Part shown: positions 1,011-8,534 of the stretch, piece by piece
Layout: every line of letters begins with the position of its first letter
How positions within the stretch are numbered: position 1 is the stretch's first letter
Sequence record: PZ445487.1
Reading direction: 5' to 3' (one strand)
DNA from: a phage
Length of the DNA stretch: 64,000 nucleotides
Position numbers and translations under genes: made by a program
The notes under the pieces: generated by a model
What the model was told of the DNA's origin: nothing
Database searches by the model: none
The model's input: the letters and a program-made list of their open reading frames with translations, nothing else

Positions 1011-1286
1011 ACAGATCAAAGAAGTATTGCTCGTTCGGAAATCAAAGATATTATACAGAGCAAAACCAACGAAACTCATGCTCAATCCAGAATGCTATCT
1101 CGATTTGTTGAAATTAAGTTTGACATTGAAGAGAATAACAATCGGAGAGCGCTGGAGGGAATGTTGGCGATTATCTTGGGCCATGTCACCAATTCAGCAT
1201 ACGACATGGATGATTTAACTCGTTTGTTGAACGCCCAGAATAACGTTGGGAATTCTGTTCGCGAATTGCTGTTTAAGTCCGAATGA
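1008..1286 (+). CDS. hypothetical protein
   Basis: ORF track; conserved leader 985-1010 upstream. Confidence 0.55.
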   Translation: MTDQRSIARSEIKDIIQSKTNETHAQSRMLSRFVEIKFDIEENNNRRALEGMLAIILGHVTNSAYDMDDLTRLLNAQNNVGNSVRELLFKSE

Positions 1287-1323
1287 ACTAACTAAGGGAT
1301 AATCCTATATCCCGAGGTGTGTC

Positions 1324-1773
1324 ATGTTCCTTACATCCTTTATTGACTGGATGAATATCATAAATGGCCTGAGGATTCCTGTTGGGAACCTCGGGCTTTC
1401 TCGTTCTTCTATGCCGCAAATCGATGCCGACAAACAAGAAGATTTTCACAAATATCTTGAAGACAACGGCGTGTCCATAGATGCTGCGCAAGTGCCCATC
1501 AAAATGCTTCGTCTTACCCAGAACGAAATCAATAAAATGAAGGTCTGGAAGATTATGAAGCAGATCAGAAATAAGAAGCCCATGGGTCGAGTTTGGGTGT
1601 CTTCTGACAATTACGTTGTTGACGGGTCTCACCGATTTGTCGCTGCGTTGAACATGGACGGCAAACAGCGCATGAAGGTCTACAAAGTTGATTTGCCAGC
1701 GATGGAATTTGTTAAACTCGCTAAACAGTTTCAGGGTGTGCGATACAGAACGGTCTCAGATTCGAGATACTAA
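1324..1773 (+). CDS. ParB/sulfiredoxin-like nuclease-domain protein (putative)
   Basis: ORF track; motif VVDGSHRFVAAL resembles ParB N-terminal GxxRxxAA box; RBS GAGGTG upstream. Confidence 0.45.
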   Translation: MFLTSFIDWMNIINGLRIPVGNLGLSRSSMPQIDADKQEDFHKYLEDNGVSIDAAQVPIKMLRLTQNEINKMKVWKIMKQIRNKKPMGRVWVSSDNYVVDGSHRFVAALNMDGKQRMKVYKVDLPAMEFVKLAKQFQGVRYRTVSDSRY

Positions 1774-1774
1774 T

Positions 1775-2050
1775 ATGGACGTCTATTCAGAACTTATCGA
1801 AATAGGAGCGAAACGTCATTTCGTAAACAAATATCTTTCGCTCATTTCTTCTTTTAGTCATTACCAAGGCGTCGGGGAGAAGCACCTATTGAAAGGTAAG
1901 ACGAGAGGGGAAGCCCTGAAACAAGTATTCGGTTCCAATGACGCAGAAATTTGGGCACAGGTTCGGCCAATTATTCTACGGTTGGATAACGGTTGGGACC
2001 CTTTAACTTGCGAAAAATGGGTTAATCGTTATGGGGTGGAATACCAGTAA
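1775..2050 (+). CDS. hypothetical protein
   Basis: Internal ATG of ORF 1688..2050 placed just after stop of previous gene; weak RBS. Confidence 0.4.
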   Translation: MDVYSELIEIGAKRHFVNKYLSLISSFSHYQGVGEKHLLKGKTRGEALKQVFGSNDAEIWAQVRPIILRLDNGWDPLTCEKWVNRYGVEYQ

Positions 2051-2144
2051 ACCACCCGTTTCTGAATACGATAGTTTATTGAAACCCTTTACTCAACATG
2101 GTGACAGCCCTATCATTTTATCCAATGAAATAAGGAGAATCACC

Positions 2145-2834
2145 ATGAAACGTTTAATCATCGGGGTTGTGCTGGCTGGTCTGGCACTTCCTGCCACCGC
2201 CAAGCTGAATTCCACGGGTGAAAAACTGTGGTCTGATCTTTCCTACTGTGCTGGGTTCTCCCAAGCCGTCGCTATAGACAAAACTGGTTCCATAGAGAAC
2301 TTTGCTGAACTCTGGACCACAGGTAATGTCACAGATGCCGTTGTAAATGCTGGTATTGAGTTTAATCGATATAAGCAAGGCGCGTTCAACCTGAAAGGAT
2401 ATATGAACGACAAAGAATTTAACCGAGGAGGCATGGAGGCGAGCGATCTTATTATGACTGGTCGTATGGGCACACAAGGACGAATGACCGTAAGACAGTG
2501 CCGTTCTCTTCCTTCTCCAGCATTACAAAAAGGTGTGCAGGTTGGCCGACGTCAGCTGGATCTCATCAATGATGGCAACCAATGTATCCGAGTATTTGAA
2601 TACAGTGCTGATCAAGAATCAGATCGACGTTTGAAAAAGGAATGGCGGACTCGCGCCCTTGGCCTGAGAGCATGGCTGGTGGAAAATGATCATTATTATG
2701 AAGACCGTGTTCAGAATGGTTTGAAAGATCTTTCCACTAATTTGTCTGTCAATCTTGATGATCCCAGGCTTGCCCGTGAACTCAAGCAAACAAGAATTGA
2801 CTGTGATAATATGATGAAGGAGAACGAAAGATGA
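2145..2834 (+). CDS. secreted/periplasmic hypothetical protein
   Basis: ATG with AAGGAGAA RBS; N-terminal signal peptide MKRLIIGVVLAGLALPATA. Confidence 0.55.
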   Translation: MKRLIIGVVLAGLALPATAKLNSTGEKLWSDLSYCAGFSQAVAIDKTGSIENFAELWTTGNVTDAVVNAGIEFNRYKQGAFNLKGYMNDKEFNRGGMEASDLIMTGRMGTQGRMTVRQCRSLPSPALQKGVQVGRRQLDLINDGNQCIRVFEYSADQESDRRLKKEWRTRALGLRAWLVENDHYYEDRVQNGLKDLSTNLSVNLDDPRLARELKQTRIDCDNMMKENER

Positions 2835-3198: not shown

Positions 3199-3993
3199 GT
3201 GATGATTATTACCAAAAAGATCGCCGAATCGATCATTGAAAAGAATAAGATGTTCGCGCCCAACAAAGCAAAGGTCATTCTGATTCACGAAGACGGACGC
3301 GTCATCTTCGCTGAAAAGTTCGAGCAGGGTTGTGCTTTCTGGTTCGCAGACACTATGCGCGAAAGCAAGCTGCAGGGCATCATCTATAAACTGACTCTGG
3401 TTGCCAAGCGCAATGATCAGGGTGATTGGGTTACGGTTTGTGATTTCAGCTCCAAGGTTGATACTCGACCAAAATCTCGCCAAGAGAGAATTCTGGAAGC
3501 TCAGGAAAAACTTGTTGCTGCTCGTACTTCACCAGTCGTTAAGCCCGCAGTCATCTCCCCTTCTATTGATCTGCCGCCTGTCAGCCAAAAGGCTGTTGAG
3601 CAATATGCAGAAAAACGAAAAGAAGAACCCGTGAAGTCTCCAGTTGAGAATAAAGAAGAATCTGAATTTATTTCAATCAGGCAATTATGCCCGCAAGAAA
3701 GGCGATTTTCTTCACCAAATGATTTATTCGTGTCTTTCCGGTCTAATGGGAAGATTATATTGTGCAAAACCCTACGGGAACAATTGCAGTGGCCTAACAT
3801 CAATATGATGGTGAGTCGGAACTTCAAACGATTCGCAATCGGTGAAGGTAAAGATTATCCTGTTAATAAGAGCGGAACATATGCAAATCGTCATATGTGC
3901 GACAAATTGTCTTTCCCAAACGATTCTGGCACTATTCGTGTTCGTTTAGAATGGGATGAAAGTTTGAACATGTATGTCGGTGATATAAAATAA
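3199..3993 (+). CDS. hypothetical protein
   Basis: ORF track; GTG/ATG start aligned with degenerate conserved leader 3174-3201. Confidence 0.5.
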   Translation: MMIITKKIAESIIEKNKMFAPNKAKVILIHEDGRVIFAEKFEQGCAFWFADTMRESKLQGIIYKLTLVAKRNDQGDWVTVCDFSSKVDTRPKSRQERILEAQEKLVAARTSPVVKPAVISPSIDLPPVSQKAVEQYAEKRKEEPVKSPVENKEESEFISIRQLCPQERRFSSPNDLFVSFRSNGKIILCKTLREQLQWPNINMMVSRNFKRFAIGEGKDYPVNKSGTYANRHMCDKLSFPNDSGTIRVRLEWDESLNMYVGDIK

Positions 3994-4005
3994 TTCAATA
4001 ACATT

Positions 4006-4036
4006 AGGGCGGTTATTATTAAACCGCCTTTTATTT
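4006..4036 (+). terminator. rho-independent terminator
   Basis: Hairpin GGGCGGTT..AACCGCC followed by TTTTATTT. Confidence 0.5.
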
Positions 4037-4050
4037 GAGAGATCTATATT

Positions 4051-4719
4051 ATGAACAACAAGAGCCGTATTATCATCGGGGCTGACCAGGGTAATTTATA
4101 TTTTGAAAGATCTGGTGTTGTCGCCCACGCTATCCTTCCCACTGGAATTTCCGTTTATTGTGTGGAACATCCTGACCCTGCAGTTAAACGTCTTTGCTAT
4201 GTCTCCCGTGAAAATGGACTAATTGTATTGCCAGAAGGCGCGATTATGCGCGCTCGTTTTTGGCCGATCGATTTTAATTCCATGAGCAATAGGGAGATCG
4301 ACGCCCGTTTCTTCGTACATAATATGAACCGGACTCTGAAAAATGAAACTCAGAGAGTTGTTCATTTCGACAATGAAACTCATGGAGTGACGTTAGAATT
4401 CAGAACTCGTGGTGAAGCTCTTCAGGTGAAGAAATCAAGCTGGAAAACTGAAGGGACGTTCACATATGATTATGCGTTAATCGACAAATTGTGTAATCAG
4501 TTTCGCATTAGCCTGACTGCCAACGACGATTTAGGTCAGTATGTTGTATGGACAGCCCGTTCACCACATATGAACGGTATCATGATGGAGAGTGAAACTC
4601 GTAATCGCGCTGTGCTCCAACTGCTGCTGTTAGACGCGTATTCTCGCAACCCGTTGGAATATCTGTCTCGGGAACAGATTGATAACGCGCTTTCTCATTG
4701 TAACCGTCTGGAGGTGTAA
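4051..4719 (+). CDS. hypothetical protein
   Basis: ORF track; terminator 4006-4036 and leader-like sequence upstream. Confidence 0.55.
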   Translation: MNNKSRIIIGADQGNLYFERSGVVAHAILPTGISVYCVEHPDPAVKRLCYVSRENGLIVLPEGAIMRARFWPIDFNSMSNREIDARFFVHNMNRTLKNETQRVVHFDNETHGVTLEFRTRGEALQVKKSSWKTEGTFTYDYALIDKLCNQFRISLTANDDLGQYVVWTARSPHMNGIMMESETRNRAVLQLLLLDAYSRNPLEYLSREQIDNALSHCNRLEV

Positions 4720-4720
4720 T

Positions 4721-5008
4721 ATGTCCGGCGTATGGTGTGATGTATTGTTGGTAAGATTTTCAAACGGGATGGATAATCAGATCATTTCATTCTTTTATCC
4801 TGTTCCCTTTTCTTCTATGGGTCTGACTGTCAAGCGCGTTCTTGACATAGAAGAAAAACTCAACACGATGCCGTATATGGCGCGACCACACGTGCTGGGT
4901 TGTGAACTGTTAAACGAAATGATGATTGACGAGAATCTTGTTGAAACAATTATCACGCGTGAACAGATGAAAACCATACTGTCTCAGGGAGAACCCCATG
5001 TCGAATAA
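4721..5008 (+). CDS. hypothetical protein
   Basis: Internal ATG of ORF 4679..5008 with GGAGGTG RBS, placed after stop of previous gene. Confidence 0.45.
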   Translation: MSGVWCDVLLVRFSNGMDNQIISFFYPVPFSSMGLTVKRVLDIEEKLNTMPYMARPHVLGCELLNEMMIDENLVETIITREQMKTILSQGEPHVE

Positions 5009-5318
5009 ACCGTTTGAACTTAAATTTCGCGTTTGGCATATTCCCCAGGTTCCTGGGATCGCTTTTCATGTTGAGGTTCCAACATTTGAAGAAGCGCAGC
5101 GCCTGAAGAATACTCTGGCTGATTATGATTTGTTCCAGTTCAACAACAATATCAAGCCGGATTATTGTAATGCTTCGGGCATTCAGATTTATCAACATGA
5201 TCTGACTGAAGAAGATCTAAATGATATGGGACTGGATGATCGTTGGGTTGATATCGAAGATATTGACGAACTCAACGATTATTTTGATCATCTGCGTAGC
5301 ACAGGGTGGGAAATATGA
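4998..5318 (+). CDS. hypothetical acidic protein
   Basis: ORF track; short overlap with neighbours. Confidence 0.5.
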   Translation: MSNKPFELKFRVWHIPQVPGIAFHVEVPTFEEAQRLKNTLADYDLFQFNNNIKPDYCNASGIQIYQHDLTEEDLNDMGLDDRWVDIEDIDELNDYFDHLRSTGWEI

Positions 5319-5524
5319 TCGGGTTAATCCGTTATCTGTTCATATTCGTAATAACAACATTCATTTTATTTTTCTTTTTCAAATACTTGAAAGAGACTAA
5401 AATCTACCGGAGTAAACGTTGGCGCAAACGGGTGAGGGTAACTTTCCTACTGCTGATTTCTTCGGTTACAATAACTGCACTCACATTGGGTGCTTATATT
5501 TACATTTTTGAAGGAGTACATTGA
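5306..5524 (+). CDS. small membrane protein
   Basis: ORF track; two hydrophobic segments; overlaps downstream SPFH gene start. Confidence 0.45.
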   Translation: MGNMIGLIRYLFIFVITTFILFFFFKYLKETKIYRSKRWRKRVRVTFLLLISSVTITALTLGAYIYIFEGVH

Positions 5525-6315
5525 TGTTCAAGAAACTGGTATTTGGCGCAATTATGGTCCTAGCGGCAAGCCTTCTTTCAGGCTGCGGCGGTGTTATCGA
5601 TGAAGGAAACGTCGGTGTTCGAACCCAATGGGGTGAAGTGGACATGAACCCTGTAACCGCAGGTATCTACACCAGTTTCGTTTCAAGTGTAGATGTCTAT
5701 ACGACTAAAGAAGCCGTCGTGAGTCTGACGAAAATGACGCCAAAGGCCAAAGACAACCTGACCTTGGAAGATCTGGATGTGGACGTTTATTACACACCGA
5801 ACGTCGCGAAGGTTCCTTGGTTCCATACCAAATTTGCAGGTCAGAGCGCTGAACTCGGTGACGGCACGATAGCGGTGGGATTCAACCTGGTTAAAACCGC
5901 CGCAGCATCCTCAACGATGGACGCCGTTTCTTCTTTGGATTCTATGACAATTCACACCCAACGGGCTGAGTTAGAAAAGATGATCAAGGAACGCACCCAG
6001 CAGCAATTAGAAACAGCTGCACCTGGCATGTTCACAATCACACGCGTGTTGGTCAAAAAGGCGCTGACAGATCCTTCGATTGAGCAATCTATCCGTGATA
6101 ATGTCATGGCCGACAAACGTTTGGATACAGCAAGAAAGAACGTTGAAATTCGCGACCAAGAAGCCAAGGCGAATCAGAAACTGACGACATCTCTGACACC
6201 TGAATATTTACAACACGAATATAACATGGTGTTGCAATCTTGCGCCAACAGCGGGAAATGTACTCTGATTGTTGATGGTTCAGGCTCAAGTAAAATGCTA
6301 AACGTCGGCAAATAA
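5524..6315 (+). CDS. SPFH/band-7 domain lipoprotein (putative)
   Basis: Signal peptide with lipobox LLSGC; GNVGVRTQWGEV...P..AGIYTSF resembles HflK/C-stomatin SPFH N-terminal motif; GAAGGAG RBS. Confidence 0.6.
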   Translation: MFKKLVFGAIMVLAASLLSGCGGVIDEGNVGVRTQWGEVDMNPVTAGIYTSFVSSVDVYTTKEAVVSLTKMTPKAKDNLTLEDLDVDVYYTPNVAKVPWFHTKFAGQSAELGDGTIAVGFNLVKTAAASSTMDAVSSLDSMTIHTQRAELEKMIKERTQQQLETAAPGMFTITRVLVKKALTDPSIEQSIRDNVMADKRLDTARKNVEIRDQEAKANQKLTTSLTPEYLQHEYNMVLQSCANSGKCTLIVDGSGSSKMLNVGK

Positions 6316-6398: not shown

Positions 6399-6677
6399 AT
6401 GAACCGTACTGATTTTATTGCTCACATCGCCCAGACTCAGGGTATGACCAAAGGCGAAGCTGAGAAAATCGTTGCATCTTTTATCAATGGCGTGAAAACT
6501 GCAGTCGCGGCTGGCCAATCTGTCCAATTCGTAGGCTTCGGCGCGTTCGAAGTTAAACATCAGGAAGCGCGCACTGGCCGCAACCCGCTGAACGGACAAC
6601 AGATCCAGATCGAAGCGAAAAATGTAGTTAAATTCAAAGTCGGTGAAGGTCTGAAAGCTGCTGCCAACGGCCAGTAA
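6399..6677 (+). CDS. HU/IHF-family histone-like DNA-binding protein
   Basis: Internal ATG of ORF 6363..6677; motifs GFGAFEV and RTGRNP..G typical of HU beta-arm. Confidence 0.75.
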   Translation: MNRTDFIAHIAQTQGMTKGEAEKIVASFINGVKTAVAAGQSVQFVGFGAFEVKHQEARTGRNPLNGQQIQIEAKNVVKFKVGEGLKAAANGQ

Positions 6678-6812: not shown

Positions 6813-8534
6813 GTGACAGCATTTAATCAACACCGAAAGGCGATTGACGCCATAGGCCGTAAGGTTCCTGTGGAAGAAATACAACGCCTTACCAAAGATG
6901 AATTCCCATATGACAAAGCGAACCCAGGCCAGATGGAATGCATCGTCGAAGCCATAGATGCGCTTATCAACAAAAAGGTTAAACATGTCATCATTGAAGC
7001 TCCGACAGGTGTCGGTAAATCTTTGATTGGCACTACCATTCATAAAGTGATTCGCCATCTAGTTTTACAGGCTGATCCTTATGGGCAATTTCGCACTTCT
7101 ATCAGCACCCCGACCAAAGGTCTGCAAGATCAGTATGCTGCTGAAAAGGCGGTGGCGATAGACATCCTAAAAGGCAAGAAGAACTATCGTTGCCACGTAC
7201 ATCCAGATGTGTATTACAATGCTGTCCAATGCCGTATAGCATGCCGTGACGGGCATTGTAGCAAACGCCGCTGTCCTTATGTACAGGCGCGTAATTTGTG
7301 GACGGATATTTCATCATTGCGTTGTACTAATGCTGCCATGATGATCGAAATGTGTACAACCATCTGCATGAAGCCCGAAAACCGTTCCGATATGCTGATC
7401 CTTGACGAGTGCCATAAAATGCCCTCTACGCTCCTAGAGCACACGATCATGGAATACAATACAAAGGCCGTGGAGGGGCTGCGTTCTATCCCTGAGGGCA
7501 AGGAGATCGTCTCTACCATTGGTGATATCGTAGAACGCACCAAGGACTATGTCCTGGGCAAGTTATATTCTTTGTCTGGTGAACTGCATTCAATGTTTGA
7601 AGCCCTCCATCTCAAAGTAGAAAATTTGTTGGAAGTTCTTGAAGAATTGGTCGAAGATGATCGCTTGAGTGAAAGCCAAGTGATGAAACTCGCCGACATT
7701 ATAGATGTCTTGCATAACTTGAGTGATTATTGCGGTATTATGTCACAAACCCAAGCAAGTACATTTATTGTGCAAGATAAGGGGGAAGATTTTATCCGGT
7801 TTAAACCTGTTATGCCTTCTGATGTAAGCGAATTCGGGTTATTCCGAAAAGCCGATTATCACGTTCATATGTCAGCAACGATCTGTGGTATAGATTCATA
7901 TGCTCGTTCATTGGGTATTCGACAGGGGGATTATCATTCCATTCAGATCGGCAACCCTATCCCGATTGAAAACAGAAAAGTCAACTATATGCCCATAGTG
8001 AAGATGACTAACAATATGGGTGACTATGAAATGAAAAGGTTGACGGAATATATTGATGAAATAATCGCGTTCCACCCAGGTCAGTCCGGCATTATCCATA
8101 CAGTGAGTTATGATCGCGCCTTGGCAATACAAAAATTCAGCAAATATCAGAATTTTATCCATGTTCCGCGTACCCGAAAGGCGTTGATGGATATTATGGA
8201 AAATGCTTTTAGAACAAAGTCCCCATGCGTCATTGCCAGTCCGGCTATGGAAGAAGGTTATGATTTCAAAGGGGATTACAGCCGTTTCCAAATACTGATC
8301 AAAGTCCCTTATGATTATCTGGGCGATCCACTGATAGCACATATCAATTCAGTGGATCCGTCGGCATACTTCCGCAATGCAGTACTGCGCATTGTTCAAA
8401 TGTGTGGACGTTCGGTCAGGGGTGTTGATGACTGGGCTGCGACATACATCATTGATTCATCCTTTGAATCTCTTATGATGCGCAACCCAGAATTCTTCCC
8501 AACCTGGTTCACCGATGCAGTGTTTGAGGTTTAA
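6813..8534 (+). CDS. DinG/XPD(Rad3)-type Fe-S helicase
   Basis: GTG start with AGGAGG RBS; Walker A APTGVGKS, DECH box (ILDECHK), Cys cluster CRIACRDGHCSKRRCP between motifs. Confidence 0.7.
   Translation: MTAFNQHRKAIDAIGRKVPVEEIQRLTKDEFPYDKANPGQMECIVEAIDALINKKVKHVIIEAPTGVGKSLIGTTIHKVIRHLVLQADPYGQFRTSISTPTKGLQDQYAAEKAVAIDILKGKKNYRCHVHPDVYYNAVQCRIACRDGHCSKRRCPYVQARNLWTDISSLRCTNAAMMIEMCTTICMKPENRSDMLILDECHKMPSTLLEHTIMEYNTKAVEGLRSIPEGKEIVSTIGDIVERTKDYVLGKLYSLSGELHSMFEALHLKVENLLEVLEELVEDDRLSESQVMKLADIIDVLHNLSDYCGIMSQTQASTFIVQDKGEDFIRFKPVMPSDVSEFGLFRKADYHVHMSATICGIDSYARSLGIRQGDYHSIQIGNPIPIENRKVNYMPIVKMTNNMGDYEMKRLTEYIDEIIAFHPGQSGIIHTVSYDRALAIQKFSKYQNFIHVPRTRKALMDIMENAFRTKSPCVIASPAMEEGYDFKGDYSRFQILIKVPYDYLGDPLIAHINSVDPSAYFRNAVLRIVQMCGRSVRGVDDWAATYIIDSSFESLMMRNPEFFPTWFTDAVFEV

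Follow-up and report, generated by a model that had tools for sequence, protein, structure and literature searches.

A stretch of 64,000 nucleotides from a phage (sequence record PZ445487.1), called the window here, contains two adjoining genes, orf127A and orf126, whose products appear to form a phage-specific accessory membrane module: a periplasmic, lipid-anchored ring or cage of the SPFH protein orf126, which would be located together with the small helical hairpins of orf127A on the inner membrane. Our confidence in this reading, taken as a whole, is evenly balanced. The 3-kb stretch around the pair matched the reverse strand of Escherichia phage CBA120 (NC_016570; Kuttervirus, Ackermannviridae) at 100% identity and about 125 other Kutterviruses of Salmonella and E. 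coli at 95-99%. Unless another locus is named, coordinates are those of the plus strand of the window, on which all features described were located. In NC_016570, orf127A is labelled as hypothetical protein and orf126 as lipoprotein; several GenBank records for the larger protein already carry the name "SPFH domain band 7 family protein". The SPFH annotation is thus not new and is public in GenBank. The literature searched contained no account of the hairpin partner, the dichotomy between phage and cellular versions, or the cysteine-pair cap.

The larger gene, orf126 (5524-6315, start codon ATG), is an open reading frame (ORF) for a lipoprotein precursor of 263 amino acids with an SPFH/Band-7 domain. 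The Pfam model PF01145 (Band_7) matched residues 24-209 (5593-6150), the region of a predicted beta/alpha SPFH fold, with an E value of 1.2e-12 and 48.7 bits, above the curated cut-off of 23.6, and in PHROG the protein matched phrog_200, "lipoprotein" (E 1e-57). A database search yielded 58 relatives with identities down to 34%; PF01145 was present in all 57 full-length homologues. An AlphaFold2 model of the monomer, built from an alignment of 40 relatives, reached a pLDDT of 87.4 and contained strands (residues 21-92), helices (94-165), a further strand (170-182) and two more helices (184-223 and 226-242), followed by a low-confidence tail. With the whole chain as query, Foldseek returned the cages of prohibitin, erlin, HflK/C, stomatin and QmcA at E values of 5e-13 to 1e-8; matches in BFVD also included virus-encoded SPFH proteins. 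A direct sequence search of the PDB gave no match at E ≤ 1, and the link to solved cages is by fold comparison only; here prohibitin and erlin scored above HflK. Judged from the model, orf126 is a bona fide member of the SPFH family, equidistant from prohibitin, erlin, stomatin and HflK. The proposal of a phage-encoded SPFH/band-7 lipoprotein in the initial annotation was borne out by the Band_7 match, the modelled fold, the similarity to cages and the lipobox LSGC described below. The "SPFH N-terminal motif" mentioned there was correct as to the family and too narrow in extent, since the match spans the whole domain.

Cage-forming SPFH proteins are built on a plan of SPFH1/2, CC1, CC2 and a C-terminal region (PMC12624060). 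The two C-terminal helices of orf126 (residues 184-223 and 226-242; 6073-6249), as defined by the AlphaFold2 model and by full-length alignments to cage-forming chains, match CC1 and CC2, the wall and roof helices of SPFH cages. The following segment (6241-6279), located from the coordinates and the alignment of homologues, contains a pair of cysteines with five residues between them, C240 and C246, and then the hydrophobic strand TLIVDG. Every element of the cage type is present, i.e., an SPFH domain, a long CC1, a CC2 and a conserved C-terminal strand, and the strand and the CC helices of the model are compatible with assembly into a ring or cage.

A likeness to HflK/C had also been suggested; it held for the generic SPFH fold, whereas a match to the HflK or HflC family (NCBIfam models, E ≤ 1) and a paralogous K/C pair were both missing. 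It appears quite improbable that the phage protein acts as a mimic which enters, or takes the place of, the HflK/C cage surrounding FtsH in the periplasm and shifts the turnover of FtsH substrates. The higher scores of prohibitin and erlin indicate that the likeness is generic to the superfamily, and the nearest cellular relatives form an SPFH subfamily of their own, with a single gene, in beta- and gammaproteobacteria. In E. coli, the cage around FtsH (PDB 7vhp, 7vhq, 7wi3, 9cz2) consists of K/C heterodimers, whereas the CBA120 locus has one SPFH gene, flanked by GP17, the hairpin and HU genes; its product has a predicted lipid anchor instead of a transmembrane helix, has a much shorter CC1 (40 amino acids), and is co-encoded with a hairpin of 69 amino acids and not with a protease. 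Moreover, CBA120 is virulent and has no lysis-lysogeny decision which FtsH could tune. Modulation of FtsH thus found no specific support.

In the N-terminus of orf126, MFKKLVFGAIMVLAASLLSGC, which has the form of a textbook lipoprotein signal, a basic n-region precedes a hydrophobic core and then the lipobox L18-S19-G20-C21; its layout MFKK-LVFGAIMVLAASL-LSGC fits the lipobox pattern [LVI][ASTVI][GAS]C. The signal peptide (residues 1-20) and Cys21, the predicted lipidation site, were read from the sequence at 5524-5586, with Cys21 at 5584-5586, three residues ahead of the first SPFH strand. The lipobox cysteine thus stands directly before the SPFH domain, in place of a transmembrane helix or hairpin. 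A lipobox was found at the equivalent position in 45 of the 58 homologues, and across these the lipidated cysteine was separated by 2-5 residues from the first strand, [IV]-[DE]-x-G-N-V-G-V. Exactly two cysteines occurred in the mature chain of 41/45 lipobox homologues, arranged as C-x5-C just before the conserved hydrophobic strand T-[LM]-I-V; the pair was absent from all 70 bacterial loci (0/70). The most distant relatives carried a signal-anchor helix after basic residues at the N-terminus and were devoid of cysteines. Since the lipobox, the signal anchor with its N-terminus inside and the restriction of the cysteine pair to exported forms all indicate a family facing the periplasm, these features point to a topology like that of HflK/C and FliL and not of QmcA. 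C240 and C246 would then be presumed to form a periplasmic disulfide beside the C-terminal segment which forms the cap.

Deletion of the disordered N-terminal linker re-routed RcsF, NlpD and Pal from the outer to the inner membrane (bioRxiv 10.1101/2021.01.05.425367), and therefore a tether of three residues would disfavour Lol export of orf126. An alternative is that orf126 is an outer-membrane lipoprotein at the cell surface, altering or masking receptors or the organisation of the outer membrane in the manner of T5 Llp or Cor, and that the small protein has a separate or indirect role, e.g., as an assembly or retention factor. The residue at +2 would agree with this, being Gly and not Asp in CBA120 and, among the homologues, Gly in most, Phe, Met or Val in others and Asp in one; so would the RefSeq name, which is simply "lipoprotein", and the few peptides of the Sajous1 orthologue in virion preparations, which are expected from envelope debris. 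A prophage-borne protein of Pasteurella, described as HflK/C-like, was reported in outer-membrane vesicles (PMC9872710). Nevertheless, the alternative is considered unlikely, on account of the tether of 2-5 residues and of the strictly conserved partner, an alpha-helical hairpin which cannot reside in the outer membrane; furthermore, Llp and Cor are small globular proteins without SPFH or coiled-coil architecture. Kutterviruses adsorb with their tailspikes to polysaccharides, and thus there would be no obvious need to block a protein receptor in the outer membrane. With the hairpin limited to the inner membrane and the tether unfavourable for Lol, the most likely site of the proposed cage is the periplasmic face of the inner membrane.

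The partner gene, orf127A (5315-5524), was delimited by its ORF, the coding sequence in NC_016570, its membership in phrog_11680 and the predicted topology; it encodes an inner-membrane hairpin of two helices with 69 amino acids. A small overlapping ORF had been noted before, with 72 amino acids from a GTG at 5306; its existence was confirmed, and the start at ATG 5315 is more plausible, as annotated. The overlap of the two genes was as described, i.e., a stop/start junction TGATG read directly from the sequence (5522-5526), in which the stop codon of orf127A (5522-5524) and the start codon of orf126 (5524-5526) share one nucleotide; this suggests translational coupling. In other phages 0-29 nucleotides were found between the partner stop and the SPFH start. 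The product can be written as MIG-[TM1]-KYLKETKIYRSKRWRKRVR-[TM2]-...FEGVH, where the segments TM1 and TM2 are strongly hydrophobic; the loop between them contains 10 K/R, and a short N-tail and a short C-tail border them. A central loop with net positive charge (+2 to +10 K/R) was present in 20/20 partners, and 17/20 had a C-tail of at most 11 residues with an acidic residue, for example FEGVH, VDHIF, LERV or LEGNL. According to the positive-inside rule, the loop would be cytoplasmic and both ends periplasmic.

Sequence conservation among the partners was low, with a mean column identity of about 25% in the alignment; already in the comparison of CBA120 with Erwinia phage Bue1, tblastn did not detect them, and a profile of the partners gave nothing meaningful against the PDB. 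Position and architecture are kept and sequence is not. No function is assigned to phrog_11680, and matches to Pfam were sub-threshold noise; families of Imm or Sie type were not among the matches in Pfam, PHROG and PADLOC. The resemblance to NfeD-SPFH operons, which had been pointed out in the initial annotation, applies to the architecture, in which a membrane protein and an SPFH protein are encoded together, and does not extend to homology. At E ≤ 10, no NfeD model matched the CBA120 partner, and none was among the 25 commonest of 43 Pfam families obtained with 21 partners. An identification of the partner as NfeD was rejected, also because 53-69 amino acids consisting of two helices and a loop leave no space for an OB-fold.

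A survey of the pairing drew on 29 viral loci with a gene for an SPFH relative, on two contigs of metagenomic or genomic origin and on annotated entries for distant phages. A two-helix ORF of 55-69 amino acids was located beside the SPFH gene in 20/20 distinct viral loci of the lipoprotein type (34-100% identity), in agreement with the small membrane partner proposed earlier; it abutted or overlapped the SPFH start in 19 loci, and in one (L026) a single gene was in between. Synechococcus phage S-CREM1, whose SPFH protein is 27% identical to orf126 and lacks a lipobox, had a two-helix ORF of 53 amino acids directly upstream. A detector for ORFs of 40-100 amino acids with two hydrophobic segments, ending at -200 to +12 nucleotides from the start of the SPFH gene, found a partner in 25/28 viral loci, compared with a background of 3/90 for other long ORFs from the same loci. 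Among 70 analysable loci in bacterial assemblies there were one clear and two doubtful cases, the latter with ORFs of 90 amino acids. The clear case was a contig of Massilia sp. TN1-12 (L039; 112,962 bp; pair at 3769-4792), whose partner resembles those of uncultured viral contigs of about 110 kb (L018, L019, L021, L023); it is probably a phage genome within a bacterial assembly. The bacterial relatives consisted of 30 lipoprotein forms (...SCGT) and 40 helix-anchored forms and adjoined ordinary metabolic genes, e.g., for thiolase, arginase, pyruvate kinase and PhoU. Relative to orf131 and GP17, the pair was placed differently in Bue1 than in CBA120, yet its two genes had stayed together. From these comparisons of gene order, the hairpin is evidently a phage-specific, co-inherited partner, the pair moves as a unit, and the small membrane protein is a genuine partner, conserved in evolution.

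Further observations concern the more distant loci. In Acinetobacter phage Ab15 (L037, 3375-4024), which has a distant SPFH lipoprotein (24% identity), a two-helix ORF of 55 amino acids was present two genes downstream and not upstream; beside the SPFH gene a protein of 156 amino acids with repeated G-D-V/V-N-G motifs is encoded, which has a bactofilin-like look. On a short metagenomic contig (L036), an AcrVA2-like gene of an anti-CRISPR family (1268-2413, minus strand) adjoins a helix-anchored SPFH relative in divergent orientation. The T4-like SPFH genes of RB43, 44RR and Aeh1 were not reached by tblastn from CBA120 or S-CREM1.

Among Kutterviruses, variable sites in the partner gene were synonymous-only in 14 and amino-acid-changing in 3 cases; the figures for the SPFH gene were 107 and 12. 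Both genes are evidently under purifying selection, and neither is a chance ORF. The module is nevertheless removable, as can be seen from natural and engineered deletions. In Salmonella phage GG32 (L119, 3145-3701), a natural in-frame deletion has fused residues 1-17 of the partner to residues 198-263 of the SPFH protein, and a LysM-type gene of 102 amino acids is inserted after GP17, upstream of the fusion; SeHz-1 and STP55 have the same SPFH remnant of 66 residues. In phage bering the SPFH gene appears to be split: it is 25 nucleotides shorter, matches in two pieces (L011, an IMG/VR contig, 4001-4764) and is annotated as two coding sequences in NC_049502, probably a frameshifted pseudogene. 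CRISPR-based genome reduction (CiPGr) of Kuttervirus selz (SenALZ1) produced viable mutants which had lost large fragments including genes 189-195 (PMC9825161). In the deposited mutant protein selz497L_195, residues 1-134 of orf131 are joined to a C-terminal piece of the SPFH protein, which has about 75 residues and starts near residue 187, and in clone selz_8t3 the spanin gene is followed by a short fusion ORF and then directly by the HU and helicase genes. These deletions run from the middle of orf131 to within the SPFH gene; they differ in their end points, of which there are at least two, and have left chimeric ORFs (L120, 2242-2556; protein P0049). By this genomic evidence the module is expendable in culture and for plaque growth, and the existence of viable phages without it speaks against an essential part in lysis or replication. 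Conserved and yet removable genes are typical of accessory functions which pay off in nature, in competition between phages, with particular hosts or against defences.

The neighbourhood was examined with a family scan of 121 ORFs pooled from 18 diverse loci. Recurrent neighbours were exonucleases of the RNase T type (6), RNA ligases (5) and metallophosphoesterases (4), and furthermore DNA polymerase, clamp loader, UvsX, SbcCD and RegA; endolysin, holin or spanin were not recurrent among these ORFs. This places the module, as far as gene content can tell, in the early/middle part of the genome for DNA metabolism. On the map of T4, the exclusion genes imm and sp are in the early/middle DNA-metabolism part. 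A T4-type late motif, TATAAATA, was absent near the locus, and a scan for sigma-70-like promoters found 15 sites against 9.4 +/- 3.5, which is not above chance.

The same data bear on lysis timing, i.e., on the notion that the hairpin is a factor like a holin or antiholin and that the SPFH lipoprotein regulates the hairpin or the spanins. Class II holins are similar in size and in their two-helix layout, one of 21 partners gave a weak, sub-threshold match to LydA-holin (E 0.032), the single match of any partner to a holin family, and a gene for an Rz-like spanin is located 0.5-2 kb from the module in CBA120 and Erwinia phage Bue1. Nevertheless, this role must be judged very improbable: beside the module of the 18 loci, genes of DNA metabolism recur and lysis genes do not, the charge of the hairpin is in the central loop and not in a C-terminal tail as in holins, and phages without the module form plaques, some of them large.

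From the above, the following sequence of events could be envisaged for the proposed module. After export through Sec, the orf126 precursor would receive its lipid at Cys21 and be cut by signal peptidase II, with its SPFH body facing the periplasm as in HflK/C and FliL; the pair C240-x5-C246 could form a periplasmic disulfide near the cap. The protein would oligomerise into a small ring or cage. For cage-forming SPFH proteins the number of subunits depends on CC1 length as y = 0.1782x + 10.22 (PMC12624060), and extrapolation of this regression to a CC1 of 40 residues would give about 17 subunits. The tether of three residues would press the ring against the membrane, and the hairpins would be located inside or under the rim of the cage, with their basic loops in the cytoplasm and the short acidic C-tails toward the SPFH domain; a ring enclosing hairpins would be comparable to HflK/C around FtsH or FliL around the stators. 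Most speculatively, the module could be expressed together with the early and DNA-metabolism genes and would enclose or stabilise parts of the inner membrane. The advantage would be conditional, most plausibly the exclusion of DNA entry by superinfecting phages or the protection of the membrane of the infected cell, rather than a contribution to lysis or replication. Superinfection exclusion, or another accessory membrane role, is what we infer from the neighbourhood together with the dispensability. A more specific version is rather doubtful; in it the pair would be a novel envelope device of phages, in which a disulfide-capped, lipid-anchored SPFH cage with its non-NfeD mini-hairpin seals patches of the inner membrane early and thereby blocks the entry of DNA from phages arriving later, or shields the membrane from effectors of abortive infection.

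Several points weigh against the proposed module. By the classical +2 rule of enterobacteria, Gly at this position, with no Asp, predicts sorting to the outer membrane, which would separate the lipoprotein from its inner-membrane partner. Gly, Phe, Tyr, Trp and Pro at +2 reportedly also keep a model lipoprotein in the inner membrane (Seydel et al. 1999), a point on which no argument here is built. The cysteine pair is missing in about half of the more distant viral homologues, so that the module can do without it. Since the loci share ancestry, the counts are not independent trials and overstate the independence of the association. With respect to timing, the sole promoter-like site upstream matched the consensus in 9/12 positions, which is not above chance, and no usable Kuttervirus transcriptome was found in the literature search. 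Oligomerisation, lipidation, the disulfide and physical contact between the partners are inferred, and an experiment on the orf126 protein was not found in the literature searched. The physiological role, which is derived from context and dispensability, is the weakest step.

Comparison with known systems would appear helpful. The SPFH-NfeD operons, e.g., E. coli QmcA-YbbJ (PDB 8z5g), YqiJK and FloA-NfeD of Bacillus and Staphylococcus, likewise consist of tightly linked genes for an SPFH protein and a small membrane protein; background on QmcA-YbbJ and FloA-NfeD as SPFH proteins with a co-encoded membrane protein is available (PMC13086221). By analogy, the phage scaffold and its small membrane protein are probably co-assembled. 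An SPFH scaffold with a lipid anchor and a mini-partner which is not NfeD can be classified as a variant within the known SPFH theme. The FliL rings on flagellar stators differ from the phage module by a transmembrane anchor, the lack of a cage wall of CC1 and CC2, and the flagellar gene context. Cellular relatives from Steroidobacteraceae, Rhizobacter, Methyloversatilis, Zoogloea and others belong to the same SPFH subfamily (34-43% identity), share the short junction to the first strand and are lipoproteins (...SCGT) in 30 of the 70 loci, but unlike the phage version they are single-gene, without a two-helix partner and without the C-x5-C pair.

Among phage proteins, T4 Imm and Spackle and T5 Llp are likewise small envelope proteins, made early by virulent phages and non-essential in the laboratory, and Llp is also a phage lipoprotein; a relation by sequence or family was not seen, and none of them is an SPFH protein. 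Spackle is an early periplasmic product of T4 which acts with Imm (PMC7677548). Band-7/SPFH proteins are also encoded by 44RR, Aeh1, RB43, the Schitoviridae phage GIB1, jumbo phages of Erwinia and mimiviruses, and most of these other viral proteins are too distant to be reached by BLAST from orf126. Lists of phage SPFH genes go back to 2006 or earlier (PMC1524935), and the reason for the presence of SPFH proteins in viruses has been called unclear (PMC1524935; PMC13239085).

The pair is part of a string of genes, which in CBA120 has the order orf130, orf129, orf127, orf127A, orf126, with consecutive stops and starts overlapping or abutting. At the upstream end are orf130 and orf129 (together 4051-5008), of which the former encodes 222 amino acids (phrog_5426, no Pfam match) and the latter 95 amino acids (Pfam DUF7425, E 1e-51); both were deleted along with the pair in the selz mutants. 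Next is orf127 (4998-5318), which overlaps the start of orf127A; it belongs to phrog_1510 and to the Pfam family GP17 (PF17420, E 9e-50), named "superinfection exclusion gene product 17". The adjacency of GP17 was not conserved outside the Kutterviruses: in Bue1 the pair flanks the orf131 homologue on the opposite side, and other genomes have no GP17. Its name was therefore dropped as functional evidence for superinfection exclusion. A strong terminator-like hairpin, AGGGCGGTT...AACCGCCTT, followed by TTTTATTT, is located at 4006-4030, 20 nucleotides before the start of orf130, so that the cluster would be driven by read-through or by a promoter overlapping the end of orf131. Directly downstream of orf126 is a gene for a DNA-binding protein of the HU/IHF type (6399-6677; Pfam Bac_DNA_binding, E 8e-30), and after it a helicase gene (6813-8534). 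None of the five genes of the cluster matched a PADLOC defence family.

Membrane scaffolds of the SPFH type are universal, and what they do in cells is still debated; viral copies have been noted in many genome papers without explanation. What was a routine annotation as "SPFH lipoprotein" becomes here a defined two-gene module with a phage signature, i.e., a lipid anchor, an ultrashort tether, an optional C-x5-C cap and an obligatory hairpin of 53-69 amino acids, by which phage versions can be separated from cellular ones. Even if the function should turn out to be trivial, a useful annotation rule for genes like orf127A would be gained. The module is small and non-essential, and the phage that carries it grows on E. 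coli O157 and Salmonella and is easy to culture; the module thus offers a tractable system for questions such as the effect of an SPFH cage on the enclosed membrane patch or client, and the use of cages by phages for exclusion or protection. If the sealing of membrane patches should prove true, this would be the first superinfection-exclusion or membrane-insulation system based on SPFH proteins, and the first function assigned to virus-encoded members of this family.

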